Counted from the stretch's first letter, positions 3,339 to 31,757 are shown. The stretch is DNA of 40,942 nt from a virus (IMGVR_UViG_2531839450_000010:1-40942); one strand, 5' to 3'. Notes: a model not told the origin generated them from the letters alone. A program made the numbers and translations.

Positions 3339-3355
3339 ATTGCTCTAATTAATTT
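3339..3355 (+). promoter_or_regulatory. C1 repressor operator-like 17-mer upstream of ssb
   Basis: ATTGCTCTAATTAATTT versus the P1 C1 operator consensus ATTGCTCTAATAAATTT (one mismatch), about 20 bp upstream of the ssb start. Confidence 0.6.
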
Positions 3356-9615: not shown

Positions 9616-11531
9616 GCCGCTACCCCCGCTTTCTGGATTGCTACCAGCAGATCAGCCAGGTGGCGAGCAGCGCCATTAACCAGCTCTTCGTTTTCCTCAA
9701 AACGCCCGGCAGCCTGAAGGGCTGCAATCGCTTCCCGGACATTACCCCGGGCGTTACGGATCTCCGCCATGTCAGTGCTTTGCATATCCATCACGTTATT
9801 GAGATATTCAATGGCTTTATTAGCCTCTGCATCTGCTTCGCTAACCGTTTCATCAGGCTGTGCCGGGGCAGGTTCTGGCTGAGTAATCTCACCGACTTCG
9901 GCCTGCAATGCATTGATCATGCTCTGCACCATTTTCTCGGTGCCAGCGCCCCCCGGATACGCAATATTGGGGAAAGTTTTTTGAAACTGAGTTTTCAGCA
10001 TTACGCGGAACTCGTCTGGTGAGCTGGTGGCCAGCTCCAGAGCTTTTTGTGCATATTTGCCAAACGGACCATTAGTAAGTGTCTTCGCCAAGAAGTCGAA
10101 AGAATCCTCGCGAGGCAATAACTTCAGGTCGTACTCACTCATTTGCTGATCAGAAAGCGGGGTATCGTAAGTAGCAATGCCGTAGCGTGCATATTCATAA
10201 TACGGGTCACCTTCATCAGGGCGCGGCAGAATTGCTTTGTTACCTTCAGGTATTGCGCCAGGGGCCGCCGGACGCATTTGCAGGGCATATCGATATGCAC
10301 CTACAGAGATTTCTGGTTCAGGCGAAGAGCTACCGGTATCCTCCGCTGGTTCAGGTTCGACGTTTTCCGGTTTATGTTCTTCTGGTTGGACCAGGTATTC
10401 CGATACATTACCCGCTTTATAGGCTTTAAACAGCTTGCCGATCGCATCTGCCATGTCCACACCCTGTATGGATTTAGCCTTGATCATGTACACGCTGCCA
10501 TCCGAATCGGTTAACTGGATATACCCTTCACCGTCCTCAATGAATTGCTTCATTGATGCACCATTACTGAGCGTCACTTCCCCGTTCATATGCATACGAT
10601 TTTTGATACTTGCAAGGCGATCCGTCATCGCGCGAGAGTGTCCACCAGTCATCCCCGCAGGAGCAATGGTTTCGCGCCCACCAGTTCGATTGAGCTGATC
10701 AATCTCCGTCTGCAAACGCTCATTCTCTTCATAAAGAGAATCCGCTTCCGATGCAACAGCGTTAATTTTCTGCTCCAGATCTACCTTCTGCCCTTCTACC
10801 GCTGCCACCTGATCCGCGAGGTCGCTCATGGCATCCTCTTTCTGGTCACTGTCAGCCTGTAGTTGGGTTATTTCATCAACCAGGGCTTTTTTCTTCTTCT
10901 GCGCACGCTGGAATTTTGCCGAGTTTTTCTCTGCAAGGTTGGCAAGTTTCATGGTGACCTGCGCCAGCGTCATATCACGTCCACTCATCGGAGCAACGGT
11001 ATGAGTAACGTCTTTTTTATTCAGTAAGAACTGGAAAGCAATCAGCGTATCGCTATTGGTGATCCGGTTTTCCGCTGTCGGGCTATGAAACAGAATGCTG
11101 ATAGTCTGACCATCACTGAGCGGAATAATGGCTGGCAGGACCGGCAGCCCGTTAACGTTACGTGCCCGGCCAATTTCAGCCCCGCCGATCGCGCGTGCAC
11201 CGTTCTGGGCCACATCCCCCGTTTTATCACTCCCCGCAGAGATTCCGGTACCATTCAGCTTCTGGTTCAATGCCCGGACAAATGCCTGCATGGTCCGGTG
11301 TAGCTGCAAACGAGTAGAACTAATCGCCTCCAGTAAATCCGTAGCACACCAGTGGATCGGCGTGTCATAGAAGAACGTAGCCTCGATTTCCTCCAGGGTG
11401 TTGGATTCCGTCATCAGATAGCGGTCCTCACCGGCCATTAATGCGCGATATTCATCATCAGTCACTGGCGGGGGAAGCACGTCAAGCCCAGGTTTGATCG
11501 TCACCCCTTTATTGATATTGAACTGTTCCAT
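9612..11531 (-). CDS. darA: Antirestriction virion protein (P1 DarA-like)
   Basis: 639 aa with a central coiled-coil region; shares a short motif (KNSAKFQ) with the preceding 203-aa protein, consistent with the P1 Hdf (homolog of DarA fragment) relationship. Confidence 0.55.
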   Translation of the reverse strand: MEQFNINKGVTIKPGLDVLPPPVTDDEYRALMAGEDRYLMTESNTLEEIEATFFYDTPIHWCATDLLEAISSTRLQLHRTMQAFVRALNQKLNGTGISAGSDKTGDVAQNGARAIGGAEIGRARNVNGLPVLPAIIPLSDGQTISILFHSPTAENRITNSDTLIAFQFLLNKKDVTHTVAPMSGRDMTLAQVTMKLANLAEKNSAKFQRAQKKKKALVDEITQLQADSDQKEDAMSDLADQVAAVEGQKVDLEQKINAVASEADSLYEENERLQTEIDQLNRTGGRETIAPAGMTGGHSRAMTDRLASIKNRMHMNGEVTLSNGASMKQFIEDGEGYIQLTDSDGSVYMIKAKSIQGVDMADAIGKLFKAYKAGNVSEYLVQPEEHKPENVEPEPAEDTGSSSPEPEISVGAYRYALQMRPAAPGAIPEGNKAILPRPDEGDPYYEYARYGIATYDTPLSDQQMSEYDLKLLPREDSFDFLAKTLTNGPFGKYAQKALELATSSPDEFRVMLKTQFQKTFPNIAYPGGAGTEKMVQSMINALQAEVGEITQPEPAPAQPDETVSEADAEANKAIEYLNNVMDMQSTDMAEIRNARGNVREAIAALQAAGRFEENEELVNGAARHLADLLVAIQKAGVAA

Positions 11532-11532
11532 G

Positions 11533-12144
11533 TTAATTTCCTGCTTTCAGTTGCTTAAGACGGCGTTTGAGTTCGCCATTTCGGGCCTTTTCGTTATTGA
11601 GTCGGCCTGTCTCCTTATCCAGCTTCGCCCGCAAATCAGTGATCTGCTGTTGATTGAAAGACACCGAGTTCTGCGCTGATTTATAAGCGGCAACCACCTG
11701 AGCATTCCGCTGTTTTGCCTCTTGCAGGCGCTGAAAGTTGGATTTTACTGCCGGTTTCTTGTCTACCGGATTGGCAACACGTTTCGCTTTGGCGATCAGT
11801 GATTTCTGGAATTTTGCGGAGTTTTTGCGGGCCGCTTGCCCCATGACGGTACCAAGCGTCTTGATATCCGGCGACTGAGCGTTAGGAATAGCTTTTCCAT
11901 TCAGCCTCACAGACGATATATCGCCAGTATCGTTTACCTGTATGGCAAGAATTTGTCCGTCGTTAAGAACCAGCTTTGCGGTTTTAACTTTAACGCCATC
12001 TTTCGTTGTTGCGCGGTTGCTGGAGTCAACCTCAATTACCGTAACACCGGTTTTATTGATCGCCGCGATAAGGGATTTCAGCCCCTTTTCATTAACCTGG
12101 TCAAAATCGACCGTTGCATACTTATTTTTCGTCATCTGACACAT
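11533..12144 (-). CDS. hdf: Hdf-like protein (homolog of DarA fragment)
   Basis: 203 aa immediately upstream of the DarA-like gene, sharing the KNSAKFQ motif and a basic coiled-coil C-terminus. Confidence 0.45.
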   Translation of the reverse strand: MCQMTKNKYATVDFDQVNEKGLKSLIAAINKTGVTVIEVDSSNRATTKDGVKVKTAKLVLNDGQILAIQVNDTGDISSVRLNGKAIPNAQSPDIKTLGTVMGQAARKNSAKFQKSLIAKAKRVANPVDKKPAVKSNFQRLQEAKQRNAQVVAAYKSAQNSVSFNQQQITDLRAKLDKETGRLNNEKARNGELKRRLKQLKAGN

Positions 12145-12565
12145 CCTGTGCGAGATTTATTACGTAACTTCTGCGGATTTGCTGAGTAACAGGGAAAATC
12201 CGATACAACGGGTTAATGAACGAGTCGCCATGCGTAACCATGACGTTGAAATGCCACAGTCGCTCTCCTTTACCCATATATTCAGTGGGTATGTACAACC
12301 ATTCACTGTTTTCGCCCTGTTCAGCCGACGTCAGACAACGTTGTTCGCCTTCAATCACTGTCGTTGGCTTCTGAACATCGCGGATCCAATATCTGACCGT
12401 TGCGCCGCGCAAAAACGGGAATTTAGACCGGTATTTGAACGGCACCCGGATGAAACCCGGTTTAATTTCCACATCACCAAGTTCTAAATGCGTGATGTCC
12501 TTGCGTTTTAGCAAATAGCGATCGGCTAAGGCTAACGCAAGAACGCATACACCCCAGCCAATCAT
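12122..12565 (-). CDS. lydB: Antiholin-like protein (P1 LydB-like)
   Basis: 147 aa, overlaps the holin gene end; position and size match the P1 lydA-lydB pair heading the dar operon, by recall. Confidence 0.45.
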   Translation of the reverse strand: MIGWGVCVLALALADRYLLKRKDITHLELGDVEIKPGFIRVPFKYRSKFPFLRGATVRYWIRDVQKPTTVIEGEQRCLTSAEQGENSEWLYIPTEYMGKGERLWHFNVMVTHGDSFINPLYRIFPVTQQIRRSYVINLAQDVSDDEK

Positions 12566-21941: not shown

Positions 21942-22297
21942 AGCACCACGTCCTGTGTGATAGTTATATCCCTGATACGAATGGATATTTTCAACTTATC
22001 AAAAGCATCTCCCTCGGCTACTGACAAGCCAGAAATCGGTATGTCAGGTAAATCTACCGTCAGTTTTTGCAACAGCATTGCCTCAACCGCAATTTGAACA
22101 TGCGACAAGTTGGTCGGTTCGTGTTTAAACTGCGGTAAAACATTGCCCCATGACGGATCCCCGTATACCTCACCCTGATAAGTGTTTAGCCACTCATATA
22201 AACGAGCGCCCCAGGCCTCCTCCTGGGACTCATACGTTTTTACGCCGGATAACTCCAGCGTCAGCAAAGGATCAATTTCGTTATTGTTGGCCATCAA
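21938..22297 (-). CDS. Small baseplate wedge-like protein (gp25/W-like)
   Basis: 119 aa, overlaps the neighbouring genes by 4 nt on both sides; positional inference. Confidence 0.35.
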   Translation of the reverse strand: MMANNNEIDPLLTLELSGVKTYESQEEAWGARLYEWLNTYQGEVYGDPSWGNVLPQFKHEPTNLSHVQIAVEAMLLQKLTVDLPDIPISGLSVAEGDAFDKLKISIRIRDITITQDVVL

Positions 22298-25200
22298 TCA
22301 ACTCTCGCGTAGTCATTCATCAACGGATCATCAATTGACAGTGGTACCGTGCGCATAACGCCCGGCTGAGGCGTGCTGACCTTTACGACAGTTCCCTGGC
22401 CTTTCGCCGAGTCTTTGGTGTGCTCTTCAATCCTGGCAAGCAATGAGGTCATCTGCGCAAACAGCCGCTTCGTTTCACCATCAAGTGAAACGGTATTATC
22501 AGCCAACTGCATTGTCGGCTTGGCACCGGAGCCGCCAAGGTCACTAATAACCTGTCCGTCTATCTGCATACGACCGGTTGGTTGCTGCAAATCGTTGGCG
22601 GCAGTCGTCACCTTGGACGTGGAGGCTGGTTCAGGCGCATTATTTTTCCGCATCCCCGGCGAGTTGCGGAGTTTATCGAATAGTCCATCAATCTCCATTT
22701 GTGCGCCGAGTTGGTCAAAGTAACTTGAGTTGTTGGCCACCGGACGCGCCTCTTCAACTGGCATCGGAGTATCAACATACACATTGCCAGCTGCTGTTGC
22801 GGTCCCCTTCCCTCGTGCACGTTCTTCGAGCGTTCCCTGAACGACTTCCCGACGCATACCCCGGCCATTCATGAATTTGTTGACCAGATCGTTAACGCCA
22901 ACAGCATTGCCGATTTTGTCTACCAGACCGCCTTTCTCAAACGGGCTATCACCAGGGGTAAATGCCAGGCCAGTAGACTGATCGATAACAGCGTTATCAG
23001 GCAGTGGTCCCCTCACTCCATATTGCGCCCCACCCTGTGCTCCTGCTCCAGGTGTATAGATTTCACCACCTAAATAGCGAGCACGATGAGTATTGACCTT
23101 GATCGCGTACTCACGGTTTTCTTTGGATAAGTCACCTGTGCCTTTTTTCCACTTATTGATAGTGCCAAACCCAGCGTTATATGCAGTGATGGCCTCGTTT
23201 AAGTCTCCATTGGCTTGCTTCAGATACTTGCTCATGAGAAGAGCCGCAGCTTCTGCCGATTTCACAGGATCAAACGATTCACCTTCAGCTAAGCCAGTCT
23301 CTTCACGAGCAATCCCCGTGAACTGAAACATTCCCAGAGCACCGGTTTGGGATTTTGCATACGGATTACCACCAGATTCAGTTGCAGCAATCGCGTAAAG
23401 AGTGCCTTCTGGAAGACCGTATTTATTCTCTAGTTCGGCAAAATACGGAGCCAACTTATCGAGATTTGCCTTACCTTCAGCGCCAAGACTTCCGACTTTT
23501 ACATCTAAGTTGCCATTGTTGTAAGTATCCGCAGCTTTCTGAATGTCATTCCTGGTGCCAGTAGTATTAAGCGACGATGATGATGAGCTATTTTGACCAA
23601 TAGCATTATCAATTTTCTGCAACGCGCTATTGCCCGTTTCTACGGCATTTGCATTGATAATCTGATTGGCAGTTTCTTTAACTGTTTTATTGCTATCTTT
23701 CGCCGTATCTAGGGATGCATTTACAACACGAGTGACAATATTAGCCTTTTTAGGGGTATATTCAGTCTTAGGAGCATTGTCCTCCTGACTTTCTTTAGCT
23801 GGTGTTTTTAATTCAGGTGTAACCTCTTTCGCATCCGCTTTGTTGACTAGCTTTGATGCAACCCAGGCCACAGGGGTGCTCTGAACAGCGGCATCTGCAA
23901 CCTCACCTGAAAGCTCTTTTGCGGCACTCCATAGATTACTGCCAGCTTCTTTAATGTATTTCCCTGGGTTCTTAATGAAATCAATTGCACTATCAATTGC
24001 ATCACTGAAAACCTGTTTCAGGTTATCGACAGTAAAGAAGTTTTTGATGGCGTCTAATTTTTCGTTCAGGTTCTTTGTTGTGTCACTGAACCATGCTGAA
24101 ATAGCATCACCAATCTTTGCAGTATAATCACTAAATGTCGTGGATATAGTATCACCAAGGTTAGAAATATATGTTTCTAAATTGGTAATCCCACTATCAA
24201 TGGCCTGGGCAATACTTTCCGTCGAAAATGATTGCAACATATTGCCGATATCCTCAAATCCAAGTGATTTGAGAACGCCGCCAATGGCACTGCTAATACC
24301 AGATACCAGTCCTCCCATATCGAGAACGTTAGCCAGTGTATAAGCCGCTTTTTGCTGAAAAGATGGATCTTCCCCATCCTTAAGCCCAAAGGTCCGACGT
24401 TGTGCTTCTGTATCATTCCAACCGGTTACCGCATCATAGATACCTCCAGCCACCGTGCCGACTAGCGGAATTGCGCGTAAAGCCCCCTTTGCAAGAGCCT
24501 TAACACCTAGTTTCCCCAATCCCTTAGTTGCAAGTTTTCCGGCACCGCGAGTAGCCAATTCGCCAGCTTCTTTGGCAGCAGCTTTTTTCCCACCAAAGCC
24601 CAATAAGCTTGCAACTTTTTTTATACCTAAAGCGCCTAGTGCCATCGAGCCAACTTTCTTTAGTACCCCACGGCCAAAAATAAGGGAAGCAATACCACCG
24701 GCCCCCTTCCCTAACAGGCTAAATAGTTTGGACAGCAAGCCGCCCTTCTTTTTCCCGGTGTTTTTGGCTATCTGATCAAGGGCGCTGAGAATCTTGTCAT
24801 TGCCCTCTTTAATTTCGCTGGTCTGCTCCTGAAGTTCCTGAACCGTCCGTTTTTGGGTGTTAACCTGAACGACATCGGCACTATTTTGCGATTTACGCCT
24901 AAAAAAACCTTTTCTACGGCTGTTATCGTCATTGCCACGAATCACATCGGCAATAGACTTTCTGGCACCATTAAGCGATCCGCCAACTTCTTTTGATATC
25001 CCGCCAAGCTCCTTCCCTGCTGCCCACAATGGACCTGCAACGGCATAACCTAACGCATCGACAGCACGAGTCTCTGAAGGGTTACCTATGCCTTCAGCTA
25101 CTTTTGACAGTTTTTTTAATAAACCTGATTCAGCATTTAGACGCTCATCATCCTCTTTGCGCCTGGCCTTTTCAGCACGTTCAGCACGGGCATCTTCCGC

Positions 25201-25692
25201 TGCGGCCTTACTCCCTGACTTTCCAATAAAACGACCACGCGCATCGCGTTGGTTTTGGCTTTTTTGCGCACCGCCTTTTTGACCGAACATTTCGCGAGCG
25301 TGTTCGGCTGCTTCGGTCCGTTGCGCCTTTACATCTTCTGTTATAGCCTTCTTGCGTCGTTTTTTACCCTTTCGCGTAGTTGATTTGGCCTGCGGTTCCT
25401 GTAGAGCAACATCCTCCTGAACTACACGAGAAACGTCCCCTAAATTAAGCCGTTTCATTGCCTCAACAATAGGGTCCACTGATGGCGCATTGGCCACAAA
25501 GTCTGGCCGGGAATTTTCGATTGTGCGATTTAATGCCGACACACTGCGAGAGACAGGATCAACTGTAGCAACTCGCCCCCCTTTCAAATCTTCAACGGCT
25601 TCCCGAATACCTGCAAGCTCTTCCAGCTCTTTTGCGCTGGCGGTTTCAACCGTCCTTATCACATCGTCAATGTTGGCGTTTTTTCTTTCCAT
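22294..25692 (-). CDS. sit: Injection transglycosylase / tape-measure-like protein with a soluble lytic transglycosylase domain (P1 Sit-like)
   Basis: 1132 aa; SLT-type motifs visible (ATESGGNPYAKSQTGALGMFQF ... AYNAGFGT); long Gly/Ala/Lys-rich low-complexity regions. P1 Sit is about 1140 aa by recall. Confidence 0.75.
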   Translation of the reverse strand: MERKNANIDDVIRTVETASAKELEELAGIREAVEDLKGGRVATVDPVSRSVSALNRTIENSRPDFVANAPSVDPIVEAMKRLNLGDVSRVVQEDVALQEPQAKSTTRKGKKRRKKAITEDVKAQRTEAAEHAREMFGQKGGAQKSQNQRDARGRFIGKSGSKAAAEDARAERAEKARRKEDDERLNAESGLLKKLSKVAEGIGNPSETRAVDALGYAVAGPLWAAGKELGGISKEVGGSLNGARKSIADVIRGNDDNSRRKGFFRRKSQNSADVVQVNTQKRTVQELQEQTSEIKEGNDKILSALDQIAKNTGKKKGGLLSKLFSLLGKGAGGIASLIFGRGVLKKVGSMALGALGIKKVASLLGFGGKKAAAKEAGELATRGAGKLATKGLGKLGVKALAKGALRAIPLVGTVAGGIYDAVTGWNDTEAQRRTFGLKDGEDPSFQQKAAYTLANVLDMGGLVSGISSAIGGVLKSLGFEDIGNMLQSFSTESIAQAIDSGITNLETYISNLGDTISTTFSDYTAKIGDAISAWFSDTTKNLNEKLDAIKNFFTVDNLKQVFSDAIDSAIDFIKNPGKYIKEAGSNLWSAAKELSGEVADAAVQSTPVAWVASKLVNKADAKEVTPELKTPAKESQEDNAPKTEYTPKKANIVTRVVNASLDTAKDSNKTVKETANQIINANAVETGNSALQKIDNAIGQNSSSSSSLNTTGTRNDIQKAADTYNNGNLDVKVGSLGAEGKANLDKLAPYFAELENKYGLPEGTLYAIAATESGGNPYAKSQTGALGMFQFTGIAREETGLAEGESFDPVKSAEAAALLMSKYLKQANGDLNEAITAYNAGFGTINKWKKGTGDLSKENREYAIKVNTHRARYLGGEIYTPGAGAQGGAQYGVRGPLPDNAVIDQSTGLAFTPGDSPFEKGGLVDKIGNAVGVNDLVNKFMNGRGMRREVVQGTLEERARGKGTATAAGNVYVDTPMPVEEARPVANNSSYFDQLGAQMEIDGLFDKLRNSPGMRKNNAPEPASTSKVTTAANDLQQPTGRMQIDGQVISDLGGSGAKPTMQLADNTVSLDGETKRLFAQMTSLLARIEEHTKDSAKGQGTVVKVSTPQPGVMRTVPLSIDDPLMNDYARVD

Positions 25693-25773
25693 GATCTTAT
25701 CGCCTACCGCTTCGGTTTAAGTTTTTCTTCCAGTTTCTCCAACAGGAAAAACGCATAGGATTCAGTGAGCCTT

Positions 25774-26655
25774 TCAGCGTCCTGAATCGGTATACCCCCA
25801 TACAAAACCAGGTTGGACACTAAGGTCTGATAGCTTTTCAATCCCCACCTGTGGAATGAAGTCGGTAGCCCGAAAGGGCACCCACAGACGGGTATACGCA
25901 CCCTCTGTGGACTCCTTTGTATCCTGGTTTGGGCATTTGTGCGGCGGGAGACGAAGACGCATTTCGCCTTTATCGATGTAGCACGGTAAACCATGTTCGA
26001 GCTTTTCATGAGCCAGCCGGATGTGTGCCGCCAGCTTCATAAATTCAGTATCAATGGCCATCCGTTTGATCGTTTCATAACGACGCTCAGCCTGCTCTTC
26101 ACGAGTACCGCTAACATCGTTATAAAGTTCACACTGATAAGCGAATTCCCAAAAACGCAAATCAACGATCGCTTCTTTGAATTCCGCGTCGTCTTCAGGT
26201 GGCAATGCTGCACGGCGCATCTCCAGCATTTCCATTGCCCAACCATCAAGCGGCACGATACGCCATTGATAAGGTACTCCCTCTACAGACACCTCAATAT
26301 CGTCAATGAAAGGTTCCACTTCCAGGACCTGGATATCTTCAGCCAGAGCATTCATATCGCAATCGTAATAATGCTCTTTACCGCAATGTTTACAGGTGTA
26401 GGTGAATGTCTCGACCGGTGTTTCACGGGAGCCGGTAAATATCCACCATAACGCGGTAATCCGGTCCTGCGCCGTCCATGTCAGGGGATCATGTTTCGCG
26501 GGTTCAGCCAGCAAGGCTTTTAAATACGCCGTTGTCTGTTGTTCTTGTTCCTCCGGTGTTATCGAGTTGAAACGCATCGCATCAGCAATATTTGGCTGAC
26601 GGAACTGGATCAATTCAGTTGGCCGCGATGGTAGCGGGAAAAGAGGTAAAAGCAT
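25774..26655 (-). CDS. Hypothetical virion-associated protein with a Cys cluster
   Basis: 293 aa containing CKHCGKEHYYDCD; directly upstream of the Sit-like gene. Confidence 0.3.
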   Translation of the reverse strand: MLLPLFPLPSRPTELIQFRQPNIADAMRFNSITPEEQEQQTTAYLKALLAEPAKHDPLTWTAQDRITALWWIFTGSRETPVETFTYTCKHCGKEHYYDCDMNALAEDIQVLEVEPFIDDIEVSVEGVPYQWRIVPLDGWAMEMLEMRRAALPPEDDAEFKEAIVDLRFWEFAYQCELYNDVSGTREEQAERRYETIKRMAIDTEFMKLAAHIRLAHEKLEHGLPCYIDKGEMRLRLPPHKCPNQDTKESTEGAYTRLWVPFRATDFIPQVGIEKLSDLSVQPGFVWGYTDSGR

Positions 26656-26669
26656 CCTTGCTCCTTAAT

Positions 26670-27281
26670 TCAAAGAGAAAAACTAAAGCCCAGAAGGGAA
26701 GCTAAAGAACTTGAGGATTGGTTAAACGTGCTGTGCAATGCGAAGGTCATTGGGAATGACTTAAATTCCGTAACCTGATCTCGCGCATAGGTGACATCGC
26801 CGGTAGTGACCGGGAATACCGTCATCTCATTTTCCAGTTTGGTTAAGCCGGAAGACAGCAACCGATAAATACGCACATTGAGCAAATATTTAGACGGTAT
26901 ATTCCCGGTACCGTCTGGATTAATCACCCGACTTTTTGCCGTCTTAAACCAGTCCAAAACGAGGCCATCAACGGTATCCCTGACCATCATTGTTATCTGC
27001 CCTGGCGAACGCTCCGTTGGTTGAAGGATATTCCCTCCGCCGATTTTAATCGTTTCATATTCGATGCTGTAATCGTGGTAGGTAATGTCTTTAGCAAAGA
27101 AGTCTGCCCCCTCCAGACCATCAACTTCGACAGAGAACTGCCATCCTTGCGCGAACAGCATTTTGTTCATGATGATTGACGTCAGCTTACCAACTTCCCG
27201 CTCACCAACGCCGGAGCCAAATAATGTCGTCGTTAATGCCGAAGATACATAAGACTTTACTGAAGCAACATTAAGCCCCAT
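26670..27281 (-). CDS. Hypothetical structural protein
   Basis: 203-aa ORF in the same operon; no motif recognised. Confidence 0.3.
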   Translation of the reverse strand: MGLNVASVKSYVSSALTTTLFGSGVGEREVGKLTSIIMNKMLFAQGWQFSVEVDGLEGADFFAKDITYHDYSIEYETIKIGGGNILQPTERSPGQITMMVRDTVDGLVLDWFKTAKSRVINPDGTGNIPSKYLLNVRIYRLLSSGLTKLENEMTVFPVTTGDVTYARDQVTEFKSFPMTFALHSTFNQSSSSLASLLGFSFSL

Positions 27282-27291
27282 ATCAGCCCCC

Positions 27292-27882
<591 letters not shown>

Positions 27883-27916
27883 TTAACCGATTCTACGAGT
27901 AGTCATTTGTGACAGG

Positions 27917-28393
27917 TCATTTTGCGCGCTTCAGGCAGCCATCTTCAGGTGCCGCGTTGAAAAGCTCTGCGGCCTTACGTAGCGTAAATGTTGCGATTTT
28001 TTTTCCGTCTACGTATGCATCGAATGTTTTAACTTCCATATCAGGGGTATCTGACCAAAAACCATACCAGTAACTATCACCCACAGAGGAACCGATAGAA
28101 CTGATAGGATATTCATCATCACCAACTTTCAGCGTTATTTGTTCTTTTTTAGCATCAAATGACTCACCGCCAGGTTCTGTTTTCATGAGAGTGAGTAGTC
28201 GTGTTCCTACTTGATTGGGATCCGTATTATTAAATCCAACATCGCACTCAAATGTAAGCGTATAATTATCTTTGCTGGAAACAGCATAAGAACGAACACC
28301 ATGAGTCTCGCCGGTTGACCATTTGCTTACATTTGCCATTGATGAAAATGGAGTAAGCAAAGCAAGAATTAGAAAAAATCGTTTGATGCGCAT
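27917..28393 (-). CDS. Secreted/periplasmic protein
   Basis: 158 aa with N-terminal signal peptide MRIKRFFLILALLTPFSSMA. Confidence 0.5.
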   Translation of the reverse strand: MRIKRFFLILALLTPFSSMANVSKWSTGETHGVRSYAVSSKDNYTLTFECDVGFNNTDPNQVGTRLLTLMKTEPGGESFDAKKEQITLKVGDDEYPISSIGSSVGDSYWYGFWSDTPDMEVKTFDAYVDGKKIATFTLRKAAELFNAAPEDGCLKRAK

Positions 28394-28454
28394 TAATTTA
28401 TCTCCTTTGGATATTAACGATTATCAATATTTTAATTGGTTATCCATAATATAT

Positions 28455-29102
28455 TTACCATTCATAGGGTAAATTAAGCGCTTTTAAACCTTGCTGGAAG
28501 GTATTAAGTGAGCCGTTCTTTTGTTGTTCCATTTGTTCGCGTGCCGCTTTCTCATACTGCTCCATCCGTTGGTTATACTCTTGCAATTCCTCTGGTGAGA
28601 GGTTTCCCATTGGGGAGTTTGTACCCGGCCCCCTGGCCCGCTCTTCAAGCGTACCCTGCACGTTTTGATGGCGCATTCCCGGGGCGTTTCTGATTGAATC
28701 AATGCCATTTCTTCCAACGTCTTCTTTATTAACGGCATTGCTCGCCACCAGCACACCCCAGCTAGGGATAGCAAAATCAGGAGCGGTTTCGCATGCCTTT
28801 ACCATATAATCGAAAGAGCTTCGATTGATCTCGTTTGCGTCGGGATTTAACAGGCGAGAATATTGATATTTAGCATTTTCGTTGGTTGCGACTTTATACA
28901 GTTCTTGCTGCACCATCGCTTCAGAAAGTTTAAGGCGTTTCATATCTGACAGTAACTTCTTGCGCATGGATTCGTCTTGACTGACAGCAAAGCCGTAAAC
29001 GTGCCCAAGGTATTTCGTATAATCGGTACAAATCTCCTTTACGCTTGATGCTGCATTAACAGTCCCAGCCATAAATAATAACGGTAGTAATAGTTTTCTC
29101 AT
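28455..29102 (-). CDS. Secreted protein carrying a Sit-like motif; candidate superinfection-exclusion (Sim-like) protein
   Basis: Likely start is the ATG at 29102 (GGTGAGG RBS); signal peptide MRKLLLPLLFMAGTVNA. Contains APGMRHQNVQGTLEERARGPGT, which matches GRGMRREVVQGTLEERARGKGT in the Sit-like protein. Lies next to the immI module. Confidence 0.5.
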   Translation of the reverse strand: MRKLLLPLLFMAGTVNAASSVKEICTDYTKYLGHVYGFAVSQDESMRKKLLSDMKRLKLSEAMVQQELYKVATNENAKYQYSRLLNPDANEINRSSFDYMVKACETAPDFAIPSWGVLVASNAVNKEDVGRNGIDSIRNAPGMRHQNVQGTLEERARGPGTNSPMGNLSPEELQEYNQRMEQYEKAAREQMEQQKNGSLNTFQQGLKALNLPYEW

Positions 29103-29198
29103 TATAACCTCACCTGCCTTATAACTCATTTAGGGTACATATTTTCGCCTTTAAAAAAAAGAGGTTATTAGATCCATTTGTGTATTTATTAAACAAAC

Positions 29199-29215
29199 AA
29201 TGCTCTAATAAATTT
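29199..29215 (+). promoter_or_regulatory. C1 operator-like 17-mer (Op51-like) at the immI promoter
   Basis: AATGCTCTAATAAATTT, one mismatch to the consensus; a possible -35/-10 pair (TTGTAT-N17-TATCTT) overlaps it. Confidence 0.7.
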
Positions 29216-29528
29216 GTATTTTTAAGTCACGAATGCTATCTTTTCGCATCATATTGACCTTTTAATCGTTCAGGCTTATAGTTCCGCCGTCGCAGCAAAT
29301 TCTGCGACCAGGTTTGACAGCCTGAATACTTACGCGGACAACCGCACATTTCCGATATTGCGGTATTTTTGTGTCCGTAAAACCACGTTACGCCCGAATT
29401 ATGGTGGGGCGTGATGGGGAGGCTTCGGCCTGCTGGTTTCGTAAGTGCCAGTCTGTCAACCCTGTCACGTCCTGCCACCTGTTTGACAGCGGGTCGCAGG
29501 TTGTTTATCAACTTACGAGGCCGTAACT

Positions 29529-29750
29529 ATGGTTAATGCCAATCCTTGCGCACGCCAAGAATTCATCTGGCGTTTCTATTCCTGTAAAAAACACCACTAT
29601 CACTTCGTTATCGCAGCAACAGAAGACGAAGCACGCTCCCAATTGCCTGATGGCCCCTGCATTTTTACTGCCCGTTTTTCAACTAACTCGCGCAATTCAC
29701 TTAGTTACTGGAACCTCCCCTTCTCTGCCGACGTTCAGGGGGTTTTATGA
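29529..29750 (+). CDS. icd: Small immI-operon protein (P1 Icd-like)
   Basis: 73 aa; stop overlaps the ant start (ATGA). A TTGACA-N17-TATCAA promoter-like pair lies about 50 bp upstream. Confidence 0.6.
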   Translation: MVNANPCARQEFIWRFYSCKKHHYHFVIAATEDEARSQLPDGPCIFTARFSTNSRNSLSYWNLPFSADVQGVL

Positions 29751-30793
29751 AAAAACCTCTCGTCACCCGTAATGAAATAGCCGAAGCGATCGCTTTGCAT
29801 ACTGCCTGTATGCCGACACGGGAGATCCCCGGCGCAATTGCTAACTATTTCATGATAACCAGGCGTTTTTATACCCGAACAGATAAGGCTGTGATCAACA
29901 GGCTACTGATAGCCGAGATCAGGGATTATTTGATTGAACAAGGACGTCTACGTTACGCAACAGTGGCAGCAGAAATGAGAAAGGAGGCACATAGAATGAC
30001 CGGTAATAATTTGAATGTTGAAAAACCAGCACCTGTTACGTCAGCTACGCCAGCACCAGCCGTGAATATTATCCCCAACACCGGAGACACAATCGACAGC
30101 CTGACACTGTTAAAGATGGTCAATGAGGCACGGAAATTATGTAGCGAAAAACCAGTTCGCAACAATGATTTCATTGCCAGAGTTAAGGATGAGCTTGATG
30201 GGGAGGGTTACGAAATCTTCGTAACCCCTATGGATAAGAAAAAAGGTGGAGCGGATCAGGTAGTTATAGTAATGACATACAAACAAGCCCTGCGCGTTGC
30301 TGCTCGCGAATCGAAAGCGGTCCGCCGTTCGCTGATCGACAAACTGGAAGAATTGCAGCAGGCAAACTCCCCTACCCCATCGATCCCCCAAACATTACCA
30401 GAAGCCCTACGCCTGGCTGCCGAGTTGGCAGAACAGAAATTGCAGCTGGAACAACAGCTGGTGGCCGCAGCCCCTAAAGTCGATTTTGCCGACCGGGTAT
30501 CAGTGGCTAATGGAATCCTGATCGGGAACTTTGCAAAGGTCGTTGGACTTAAGCAAAACGCCCTTTTCTCATGGTTGCGCCAGAACGGCATTCTCATGGC
30601 TTTTGGTGCGCGCAAAAACGTACCGCGCCAGCAGTACATTAACGCCGGGTATTTCACGGTGAAAGAAGTGGTGCTGGATGATGAAAATGGCTACCAGATA
30701 CGGCTGACGCCCCAATTAACGGGTAAAGGCCAGCAGTGGTTAACTCGCAAGCTACTTGATGCTGGTTTGTTAAAACCAGTAGCAATAGGTTAA
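29747..30793 (+). CDS. ant: Antirepressor Ant1 with a KilAC/ANT C-terminal domain; an internal in-frame start at 29996 would give Ant2
   Basis: 348 aa. The C-terminal domain (PKVDFADRVSVANGILIGNFAKV...GKGQQWLTRKLLDAG) is paralogous to the KilA C-terminus. A strong AGGAGG SD sits 8 nt before the internal ATG at 29996. Confidence 0.7.
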   Translation: MKKPLVTRNEIAEAIALHTACMPTREIPGAIANYFMITRRFYTRTDKAVINRLLIAEIRDYLIEQGRLRYATVAAEMRKEAHRMTGNNLNVEKPAPVTSATPAPAVNIIPNTGDTIDSLTLLKMVNEARKLCSEKPVRNNDFIARVKDELDGEGYEIFVTPMDKKKGGADQVVIVMTYKQALRVAARESKAVRRSLIDKLEELQQANSPTPSIPQTLPEALRLAAELAEQKLQLEQQLVAAAPKVDFADRVSVANGILIGNFAKVVGLKQNALFSWLRQNGILMAFGARKNVPRQQYINAGYFTVKEVVLDDENGYQIRLTPQLTGKGQQWLTRKLLDAGLLKPVAIG

Positions 30794-30870: not shown

Positions 30871-30887
30871 TTTGCTCTAATAAATTT
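30871..30887 (+). promoter_or_regulatory. C1 operator-like 17-mer (Op53-like) upstream of kilA
   Basis: TTTGCTCTAATAAATTT, one mismatch to the consensus, about 70 bp upstream of the kilA start. Confidence 0.7.
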
Positions 30888-30956: not shown

Positions 30957-31757
30957 ATGCAACAAACATTCAATGCGGATATGAATATATCAAACCTTCA
31001 TCAAAATGTCGATCCTTCAACCACTCTGCCTGTTATTTGTGGTGTTGAAATTACGACCGACCGCGCTGGCCGTTACAACCTTAATGCTCTACACAGAGCG
31101 AGCGGACTCGGTGCCCATAAAGCGCCAGCTCAATGGCTAAGAACGCTGTCAGCCAAACAGCTCATCGAAGAGCTTGAAAAAGAAACTATGCAGAATTGCA
31201 TAGTTTCGTTCGAAGGCCGTGGCGGCGGCACTTTTGCCCATGAATTGCTCGCAGTGGAGTACGCAGGTTGGATTTCTCCCGCGTTTCGGCTGAAGGTAAA
31301 CCAGACATTTATCGACTATCGAGCTGGAAGATTACAACCTGCTATTCCGCAGAGCCTCCCAGAAGCTCTCCGTTTGGCTGCTGACCTGGCAGAGCAAAAG
31401 CAACGGCTGGAGCAAAAAATGCTGATGGATGCACCTAAAGTCGAATTCGCCGAACGCGTTGCTACCGCCAGCGGGGTTCTAATCGGCAACTATGCCAAAG
31501 TGCTCGGCCTGGGCCAAAACTATCTCTTCACCTGGTTGCGTGATAACGGAATTCTGATCGCAACCGGTGAACGCAGGAACGTCCCCAAACAAGAATACAT
31601 ATCCCGTGGGTATTTCACCCTTAAAGAAACCGTGATCGATACAAGCAATGGAAGCAGGATTTCTTTCACGACTCGTATAACCGGCAAAGGTCAGCAGTGG
31701 CTGATGAAGCGATTGCTTGATGCTGGTGTGCTGGTACCTGTCGCGGCAACGCGCTAA
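30957..31757 (+). CDS. kilA: KilA-type protein (KilA-N plus KilAC domains)
   Basis: 266 aa; C-terminal domain paralogous to Ant; sits between ant and repL as in the P1 lytic replicon. Confidence 0.7.
   Translation: MQQTFNADMNISNLHQNVDPSTTLPVICGVEITTDRAGRYNLNALHRASGLGAHKAPAQWLRTLSAKQLIEELEKETMQNCIVSFEGRGGGTFAHELLAVEYAGWISPAFRLKVNQTFIDYRAGRLQPAIPQSLPEALRLAADLAEQKQRLEQKMLMDAPKVEFAERVATASGVLIGNYAKVLGLGQNYLFTWLRDNGILIATGERRNVPKQEYISRGYFTLKETVIDTSNGSRISFTTRITGKGQQWLMKRLLDAGVLVPVAATR

Follow-up and report, generated by a model that had tools for sequence, protein, structure and literature searches.

The window analysed here, IMGVR_UViG_2531839450_000010:1-40942 (the whole stretch of 40,942 nucleotides), is DNA of a P1-like (Punavirus) phage or phage-plasmid. 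Two of its proteins, the tail tape-measure protein Sit and a small secreted protein referred to below as SimA-like, share a segment that is a short linear motif, and comparison of the sequences shows that this segment is specific to the two proteins and under protein-level selection in both. It is proposed, tentatively, that the SimA-like protein may mimic the tape-measure motif in the periplasm and in this way interfere with the entry of DNA from P1-like phages; we regard this as a real possibility, to be held with some reserve. The features on which the argument turns, all of them on the minus strand, are the following.

22294..25692 (-): Sit-like tail tape-measure protein, 1132 residues (open reading frame (ORF); 95-98% DNA identity to P1-like sit; pmgA-sit-pmgB-tub-pmgC synteny)
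23116..23445 (-): SLT (lytic transglycosylase) domain, Sit residues 750-859 (Pfam PF01464, E = 8.9e-27)
22780..22908 (-): first motif copy of Sit with its flanks, residues 929-971; core and extension, GRGMRREVVQGTLEERARGKGT, at 22801-22866
22639..22680 (-): second motif copy of Sit, core only, FDKLRNSPGMRKNN, residues 1005-1018 (BLASTP E = 0.011 and regex scans)
28455..29102 (-): secreted full-length SimA-like protein, 215 residues from the ATG at 29102 (the ORF is open to 29129, which makes 224 residues)
29052..29102 (-): predicted Sec signal peptide MRKLLLPLLFMAGTVNA, cleavage after VNA (read from the sequence: positive n-region, hydrophobic core, A-x-A-type site)
28599..28739 (-): motif region of the SimA-like protein, residues 131-177 (224-residue numbering); core and extension, APGMRHQNVQGTLEERARGPGT, at 28620-28685

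An initial annotation of this DNA had pointed to a motif of about 20 residues common to the two proteins, with DNA about 70% identical. The motif is real: GRGMRREVVQGTLEERARGKGT of Sit (residues 943-964, DNA 22801-22866, minus strand) and APGMRHQNVQGTLEERARGPGT of the secreted protein (residues 149-170 in the 224-residue numbering, DNA 28620-28685, minus strand) are identical at 16 of 22 amino acids and at 45 of 66 nucleotides (68%). (Both peptides are present as that annotation quoted them; the genes lie on the minus strand, and translation of the plus strand at these places is meaningless.) Pairwise BLASTP alignment of Sit with the secreted protein extends over 47 columns, of which 23 are identical, with E = 5e-9. 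The corresponding Smith-Waterman score is 101, to be compared with 40.1 +/- 5.6 in 1000 shuffles (maximum 76, none reaching 101; Gumbel p ~5e-7). A second, weaker BLASTP match (E = 0.011) pairs IDSIRNAPGMRHQN of the secreted protein with the second core copy of Sit, FDKLRNSPGMRKNN. The conserved peptide common to both proteins spans 25-45 residues. Its form is that of an amphipathic helix followed by N-x-x-G-M-R-(H/R)-(Q/E), continued in many copies as x-x-x-G-(T/S)-(L/M)-x-(E/D)-R-A-x-G-x-G-T.

The shared peptide is not of low complexity (3.0-3.4 bits per residue), nor is it widespread, which is what the initial annotation had named as an outcome that would undo its reading; the motif is confined to two families. 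A six-frame translation of the window finds it in no protein besides Sit and the secreted protein. In IMG/VR, all 34 loci that match the pattern N-A-x-G-M-R-H-Q belong to the SimA-like family or to Sit. The shorter pattern A-E-G-M-R-H-Q brings up Sit-type tape measures, short stray-frame ORFs and two longer ORFs without Sit-type motif context, and the matches outside Sit are taken as chance hits. When the C-terminal 239 residues of Sit are searched exhaustively with HMMER against 1.84 billion representatives, there are 17 hits, all of them Sit family members or fragments, and no unrelated carrier of the motif. (A profile search with a 22-instance motif alignment against a 5.8-billion-protein index returned one fragment, with 27 candidates from the word index, and is uninformative.)

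Selection on the peptide is implied by the codons. Nucleotide identity between the two motif copies, taken by codon position, is 18, 17 and 10 of 22, so that third positions are largely randomised. Where Sit and the SimA-like protein have the same residue, the same codon is used at 5 of 19 places in the window pair and at 6 of 17 in the pair from a second P1-like contig, IMGVR_UViG_2871745582. Synonymous sites are thus saturated in two independent pairs, which implies that it is the peptide that is selected for; on the same ground, recent gene conversion is rejected as the source of the similarity.

The Sit of the window is an ordinary P1-like member of its family in length, in its SLT domain (the PDB relatives of which are MltC-type transglycosylases) and in its place between pmgA and pmgB. 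The role of Sit is that of tape measure (PMC9024508). Distant Sit relatives (~30-40% identity) come from P1-like gene clusters, and each keeps one or two copies of the motif (three in one protein), paired copies lying 76-82 residues apart, or 152 in one case. The motif of these relatives reads hydrophobic-x-x-hydrophobic-G-x-(D/E)-x-hydrophobic-(R)-x-A-x-G-(M/L)-R-H-Q, with LGGDKLRDAEGMRHQV, VLNAEGLRHQV and ARNAPGMRHQVATGSMADRAYGMGT as examples. When all Sit clades are aligned, very few columns in the C-terminal ~400 residues come close to invariance, and the G and the R of G-M-R are two of them. At ~60 P1-type Sit loci the first copy is MNGRGMRREVVQGTLEERARG-x-GT, where x is K, R or N, and the preceding G is replaced by E in two of the loci. 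Three Sit relatives, P0033, P0034 and P0036, differ over the SLT stretch and have no Pfam SLT match there, and still keep one or two G-L-R-H-Q motifs, which argues that the motif is not an appendage of the transglycosylase. Neither PMC9024508 nor PMC12810830 mentions a conserved repeated G-(M/L)-R-H-Q linker motif.

AlphaFold2 (AF2) modelling of Sit residues 740-1132 is confident in the SLT domain alone (predicted local distance difference test, pLDDT, ~85-94) and stays below 50 in everything after it. Short helices flank G-M-R in this model and the motif itself is predicted to be disordered, so that its predicted place is the flexible stretch that links the SLT domain of Sit to the conserved C-terminal domain. 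A low-pLDDT linker with flanking helices is the signature of a short linear motif, an element that usually docks onto a folded partner. What the initial annotation described as a copied segment of the injection machinery is accordingly a real shared segment, not a folded piece but a short linear motif in a predicted disordered linker.

Other parts of Sit are conserved as well. The last ~90 residues (22297-22500, minus strand), AKPTMQLADNTVSLD...STPQPGV..TVPLSIDDPLMN.YARVD, are the best conserved outside SLT in all clades and are separate from the motif; they probably constitute a hub-proximal domain. Residues ~320-420 (~24430-24730, minus strand) form a long hydrophobic stretch rich in Gly, Ala, Leu and Lys, GGLLSKLFSLLGKGAGGIASLIFGRGVLKKVGSMALGALGIKK...ALRAIPLVGTVAGGIYDAV, kept in distant relatives, and by analogy with the T4 tape measure this is a candidate membrane-inserting or pore-forming segment. 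In P0033, P0034 and P0036 the stretch that aligns with SLT, NIGGSNA..R.FRNNNFGNL.Y.GQ.GARLENANA.GERRFAR.DTPEEG, has no Pfam match; a muralytic or other domain not described so far may have been swapped into the SLT position here.

In the SimA-like protein a conserved N-domain, in which two cysteines are invariant, precedes the motif, and a helical tail follows it. Its likely start is the ATG at 29102, which is preceded by a Shine-Dalgarno-like GGTGAGG. The initial annotation had called it a signal-peptide protein, and as a sequence prediction this is borne out: the N-terminus reads MRKLLLPLLFMAGTVNA and, beyond the predicted cleavage site, ASS, which is a typical Sec signal with a V-N-A site and no lipobox, conserved in all homologues. 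The phrog_3933 profile matches the protein with E = 6e-137 at 213 of 213 positions, and the traits that define the family (homology over the whole length, signal peptide, two conserved cysteines and N-x-x-G-M-R-x-Q after the N-domain) are all present. Signal peptide and invariant cysteines together predict that the protein is located in the cell envelope; the two cysteines probably form a disulfide. The protein has no Pfam family above threshold, no NCBIfam match and no PDB relative by sequence. A PTP-like phytase (PF14566) was considered for the N-domain (residues 24-109 in the 215-residue numbering; 28776-29033) and rejected: the match scores 26.5-26.7 bits, below the cut-off of 27, covers profile positions 46-132 of 158, is obtained with three of eight family members and is not accompanied by C-x5-R after either cysteine. 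It is probably remote helical similarity or noise.

In all homologues the conserved N-domain is followed, at a short and roughly constant distance, by N-(A/S)-(P/R)-G-M-R-x-Q. Of N-x-x-G-M-R-x-Q, the N, G, M, R and Q do not vary even when a member with 36% identity is aligned, and this core is kept across the P1/D6-like elements of E. coli, Salmonella and Klebsiella. What had been described as a 20-residue copy therefore stands in part: the core N-x-x-G-M-R-x-Q is universal in the family and the QGTLEERARG extension is found in some members. Those that carry a tape-measure-like extension (Class I) read NVQGTLEERARGPGT in the window, KVEGTLESRARGNG in a Salmonella member and QNTQGALERRALG in another. 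The family is found solely in P1-like elements, and the Sit of the same element, wherever it is readable, carries the motif.

Among plasmids, 267 PLSDB entries match the protein; with few exceptions these are non-mobilizable and come from Escherichia, Salmonella or Klebsiella. In 84 of the 267 the gene is full-length (coverage of the query of 80% or more); others have a 172-residue form, and many a 48-residue stub alone. The 172-residue form is a natural variant that is 97-99% identical up to the motif and ends three residues after it (...ERARGPGVAP), implying that the helical tail is dispensable and that the motif is what is kept. When the variant in IMGVR_UViG_2529293172_000010 (9974-12258) is set against window 28455-28620, the two are unrelated directly after ...ERARGPG, the variant stopping after VAP and leading into a different cassette that includes a 394-residue ORF. 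This divergence point places a recombination junction right at the 3' edge of the motif.

The second, distant pair comes from IMGVR_UViG_2871745582, a 94-kb P1-like contig. Its Sit matches that of P0026, the C-terminal region of which is 39% identical to that of the window's Sit; its SimA-like protein has 176 residues, is 36% identical to that of the window, and is encoded between the gene for a PAAR spike-tip protein and rdgC/dmt. The two motifs, ENAPGMRHQAVKGSMAERARGDGT in the SimA-like protein and NAPGMRHQVATGSMADRAYGMGT in Sit, both have GSMA where the window pair has GTLE. In this contig (IMGVR_UViG_2871745582_000001, 2963-4414) the SimA-like gene is followed by genes for a 123-residue signal-peptide protein and a 161-residue multi-pass membrane protein, all three lying between the PAAR-like gene and rdgC/dmt, and the region is another small envelope-protein cassette at a different locus. 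The matched GSMA and the identity counts (17 of 29 between this SimA-like protein and its own Sit, as against 13-16 of 29 to other extension-bearing Sit clades), which amount to a weak cognate preference, are no more than suggestive of cognate co-evolution of the two motifs. Scans of genome and metagenome contigs for distant SimA-like genes returned close relatives only and no new pairs in which co-variation could be followed, and a degenerate N-domain pattern in IMG/VR likewise returned close relatives only.

The genes of the region are those of other P1-like elements. Bases 22000-30000 are 95-98% identical to P1, P7, SJ46, RCS47 and others, and match phage vB_EcoM-Ro157c2YLVW at 96% identity over 97% of the length. 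On the minus strand the order is bplA, pmgA, sit (22294-25692), pmgB, tub and pmgC, followed by two small genes (27917-28393 and 28455-29102), the second of which is the SimA-like gene. Beyond it lie a C1 operator and then immI on the plus strand (c4 target, C4 RNA, icd and ant). The remaining features are the following.

27917..28393 (-): neighbouring 158-residue signal-peptide protein, phrog_3429 (ORF and PHROG match)
29199-29215 (+): C1 repressor operator (equivalent of Oc4/Op51), one mismatch to ATTGCTCTAATAAATTT, ~85 nucleotides upstream of the SimA-like start
29276-29328 (+): a1b1 target, immI context (Rfam, above gathering score)
29397-29482 (+): C4 antisense RNA, immI context (Rfam, above gathering score)

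The secreted protein had been placed next to immI, and rightly so: the operator, the C4 RNA, icd and ant come just past its gene. The C1 operator at 29199-29215 separates the SimA-like gene from the divergent c4-icd-ant operon, in a position that matches the annotated P1 and P7 records, and the Rfam scores in 29276-29482 (RF03163, 61.2 bits; RF01695, 69.6 bits) both exceed the gathering score. The window has three C1-operator-like sites (3339-3355, 29199-29215 and 30871-30887), each with one mismatch to ATTGCTCTAATAAATTT, where 0.01 is expected by chance. The site at 30871-30887 lies upstream of a 266-residue ORF (30957-31757), the C-terminal half of which resembles that of Ant1 (common ...PQ(T/S)LPEALRLAA(E/D)LAEQK...). 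The 158-residue neighbour has its phrog_3429 match alone and none in Pfam, NCBIfam or PADLOC. A homologue of it, 28% identical (E = 4e-27), follows the 172-residue SimA-like variant in other P1-like elements (at 10581-11087 in IMGVR_UViG_2529293172_000010), so that the two genes travel together, although the neighbour is far more diverged; it may belong to the same system.

The slot that the SimA-like gene occupies holds simC, simB and simA in P1, and upf50.0 and upf50.5 in P7. Among P1-like phage-plasmids, simABC is known as one of the hypervariable regions (PMC9603915), and lytic growth does not depend on the sim genes (PMC10695390). In the window, simB and simC are missing. The first 48 residues of the SimA-like protein are 85% identical to the P1 simA region (tblastn). 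P1 SimA, which has 52 residues, reads MSYKAGEVIMRKLLLPLLFMAGTVNAASSVKEICTDYTKYLGHVY, then diverges and stops; when window 28968-29102 (minus strand) is compared with P1 AF234172 7719-7877, the two are identical in reading up to ...YLGHVY, after which P1 diverges. P1 simA is thus the 5' stub (~45 codons) of a gene that is intact in the window, implying that in P1 the simBC cassette replaced most of the ancestral gene. The window protein and P1 SimA have in common the first ~45 residues, the signal peptide and the position beside Oc4; they differ in that the stub stops short of a complete N-domain and lacks the motif, whereas the window gene is intact and encodes 215 residues. P1 simA is annotated as a "putative superimmunity accessory function" and NCBI names several of the homologues "simA domain protein". 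In the literature covered, to which the P1 genome paper of Lobocka et al. 2004 does not belong, no mention of the motif or of the full-length gene was found.

In P1 studies from before 2000, Sim is described as an exported protein that undergoes processing and stops infection once adsorption has taken place. The label "Sim-like" in the initial annotation is wrong: the window protein is not SimC, the "superimmunity" protein of P1. The window protein and SimC share a genomic slot and an N-terminal signal peptide, but not sequence (best BLASTP E = 28), and SimC has no G-M-R motif. Homology to SimC is accordingly rejected, and the SimA-like protein says nothing on how SimC works.

How a secreted copy of a tape-measure motif might act can be outlined as a sequence of steps. 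The C-terminal end of a tape measure sits at the baseplate and exits the tail first, and the C-terminal end of Sit is likewise expected to leave the tail first and enter the periplasm. The gene beside the immI C1 operator, outside the late operon, would provide the phage-carrying cell with a Sec-exported, soluble protein that bears the motif downstream of its N-domain; it would be expressed in the lysogen and would reside in the periplasm. There, when a second P1-like phage injects, it and the arriving tape measure would compete for the partner of the motif, perhaps a factor of the host envelope or some other component of the ejected Sit and tail-tip assembly; alternatively, the secreted protein might co-assemble with the ejected Sit. 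Either way, DNA entry would be blocked after adsorption, which is to say that the second phage would be excluded. A more pointed formulation, that the prophage exports a soluble display of the docking motif which out-competes incoming tape measures for their envelope partner or poisons self-assembly of a trans-periplasmic conduit, is on the doubtful side.

What bears on expression apart from the late genes is this: the P1 and P7 records place LPsit downstream of the slot, and that of P1 has a predicted sigma-70 promoter, PsimA, at the equivalent place. What is known of other tape measures fits the outline. In T4, the exclusion protein Imm binds the tape measure, which forms a genome-translocation channel (bioRxiv 10.64898/2026.03.06.709160). 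The lambda and HK97 tape measures work with inner-membrane and periplasmic host proteins (PMC13190303 and the Cumby et al. papers cited there); PMC13190303 also describes SNIPE, a defence protein that targets tape measures.

Several observations weigh against such mimicry. The Class II members of the SimA-like family (D6-like Salmonella and Klebsiella-like) have a cysteine-containing module, PSxxxxxFKxC...C, in place of the extension; since they keep the eight-residue core alone, a full 20-residue copy is not required by the family. The motif of the window SimA-like protein is slightly closer to that of D6-type Sit (21 of 29) than to that of its own Sit (19 of 29), which leaves the identity matrix ambiguous and strong cognate co-evolution unsupported. 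Of the structure predictions that had been proposed for both proteins, that of Sit is confident in its SLT domain, and that of the secreted protein (from a 12-sequence alignment) is unusable, with a pLDDT of 43.6. Sit is unresolved in the P1 cryo-EM structure (PMC12810830). A promoter consensus scan of the SimA-like strand gives one weak match at the start codon (29102-29075, 9 of 12), sites no more numerous than in shuffled sequence, and none between operator and start codon. No PADLOC defence model matches the SimA-like protein, its 158-residue neighbour or P1 SimC. Finally, P1 and P7 are without an intact SimA-like copy, so that the classical literature offers nothing to borrow.

Other explanations of the shared motif have to be set beside mimicry. 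The motif might be a common handling signal, that is, the site of a host periplasmic factor (a protease, a chaperone or an envelope anchor) that Sit and the secreted protein each need separately, with no interference between them. A short motif in disordered sequence, repeated within tape measures, is what docking or cleavage sites often look like, and it is the eight-residue core alone that is universal in the secreted family. A general host signal would, however, be odd if confined to two families, as it is in the IMG/VR scans, or to Sit alone, as in the HMMER search. The secreted family is found solely in P1-like elements with a motif-bearing Sit wherever that is readable, even when the gene is at another locus. 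We consider this explanation unlikely. Improbable, in our judgement, is an arrangement of receptor and tethered pseudo-ligand, in which the N-domain would bind the motif and its own copy would be displaced by that of an incoming Sit, leading to direct capture of the tape measure in the manner of Imm or Ltp. Exclusion proteins that bind tape measures directly do exist (bioRxiv 10.64898/2026.03.06.709160), and the constant placement of the motif shortly after the N-domain would suit such an arrangement; against it, the N-domain has no PDB relative and only a sub-threshold Pfam hit, and the AF2 model of the secreted protein is too poor to show docking.

It is also conceivable that the motif binds and auto-inhibits the SLT domain of Sit and that the secreted copy inhibits the transglycosylase of an incoming phage, much as the spackle protein acts in T4. 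The motif lies ~85 residues downstream of the SLT domain, and a small PHROG transglycosylase family aligns over the motif region. Yet P0033, P0034 and P0036 keep their motifs without a Pfam SLT match, and in the AF2 model the motif is not packed against the SLT domain, which is itself folded with confidence; with no docking of the motif in the model of residues 740-1132, nothing supports autoinhibition of SLT, and this explanation is quite improbable. Least credible of all would be a functionless sit fragment captured by illegitimate recombination in a hypervariable slot, or an accidental similarity. The slot is a recombination hot spot (PMC9603915), P1 retains only 45 codons of the gene and the 172-residue variant has its junction right after the motif. 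Chance is excluded by the alignment statistics (BLASTP E = 5e-9; 0 of 1000 shuffles reach the score), and a relic would decay, yet the core is invariant down to 36% identity while synonymous sites are saturated.

Mimicry of the tape-measure motif would have its closest counterparts in exclusion systems that are already known. T4 Imm, streptococcal Ltp and HK97 gp15 resemble it in being phage-encoded envelope proteins for which the tape measure is target or determinant; the target of Ltp is the tape-measure protein. They are, however, membrane proteins or lipoproteins that bind the tape measure, whereas the window protein, which lacks a lipobox, is soluble and itself contains a copy of a motif from the tape measure. 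No homology of the window protein to Imm, Ltp or gp15 was detected in Pfam, NCBIfam or PADLOC, and we know of no protein of the Imm/Ltp/gp15 type that has been reported to share a sequence motif with a tape measure. T4 Sp (spackle) is a periplasmic inhibitor of the tail lysozyme gp5. It is, as the window protein would be, a small, Sec-exported periplasmic protein of a myophage acting on a tail-borne muralytic protein of the superinfecting phage, and it is different in that the window motif is not tied to the SLT domain; the two have no sequence relation. The Ltp family comprises exclusion lipoproteins (PMC3952083), and HK97 gp15 exclusion is cited in PMC11364771 and PMC13190303 as acting on tape-measure-mediated entry. 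Exclusion aimed at the tape measure is thus already known; motif mimicry as the route to it would, if true, be new.

The passage of DNA of contractile-tailed phages across the periplasm and inner membrane, and the means by which prophages block their relatives, are poorly known, and to our knowledge no host factor for P1 DNA entry has been established. If the proposal is true, no functional linear motif would have been defined in a myophage tape measure before this one, which would also be a direct bait for the periplasmic or inner-membrane step of P1 DNA entry. It gives a concrete, mutable handle on entry and exclusion, in the form of three residues (G-M-R) in either protein and of a peptide that can serve as bait. 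A classical locus is also re-read: P1 simA is a remnant, and the intact form is present in about one-third of the sequenced P1-like plasmids with a match to the gene. P1-like phage-plasmids are common in Enterobacteriaceae, often with resistance genes, so that exclusion among them affects their spread.

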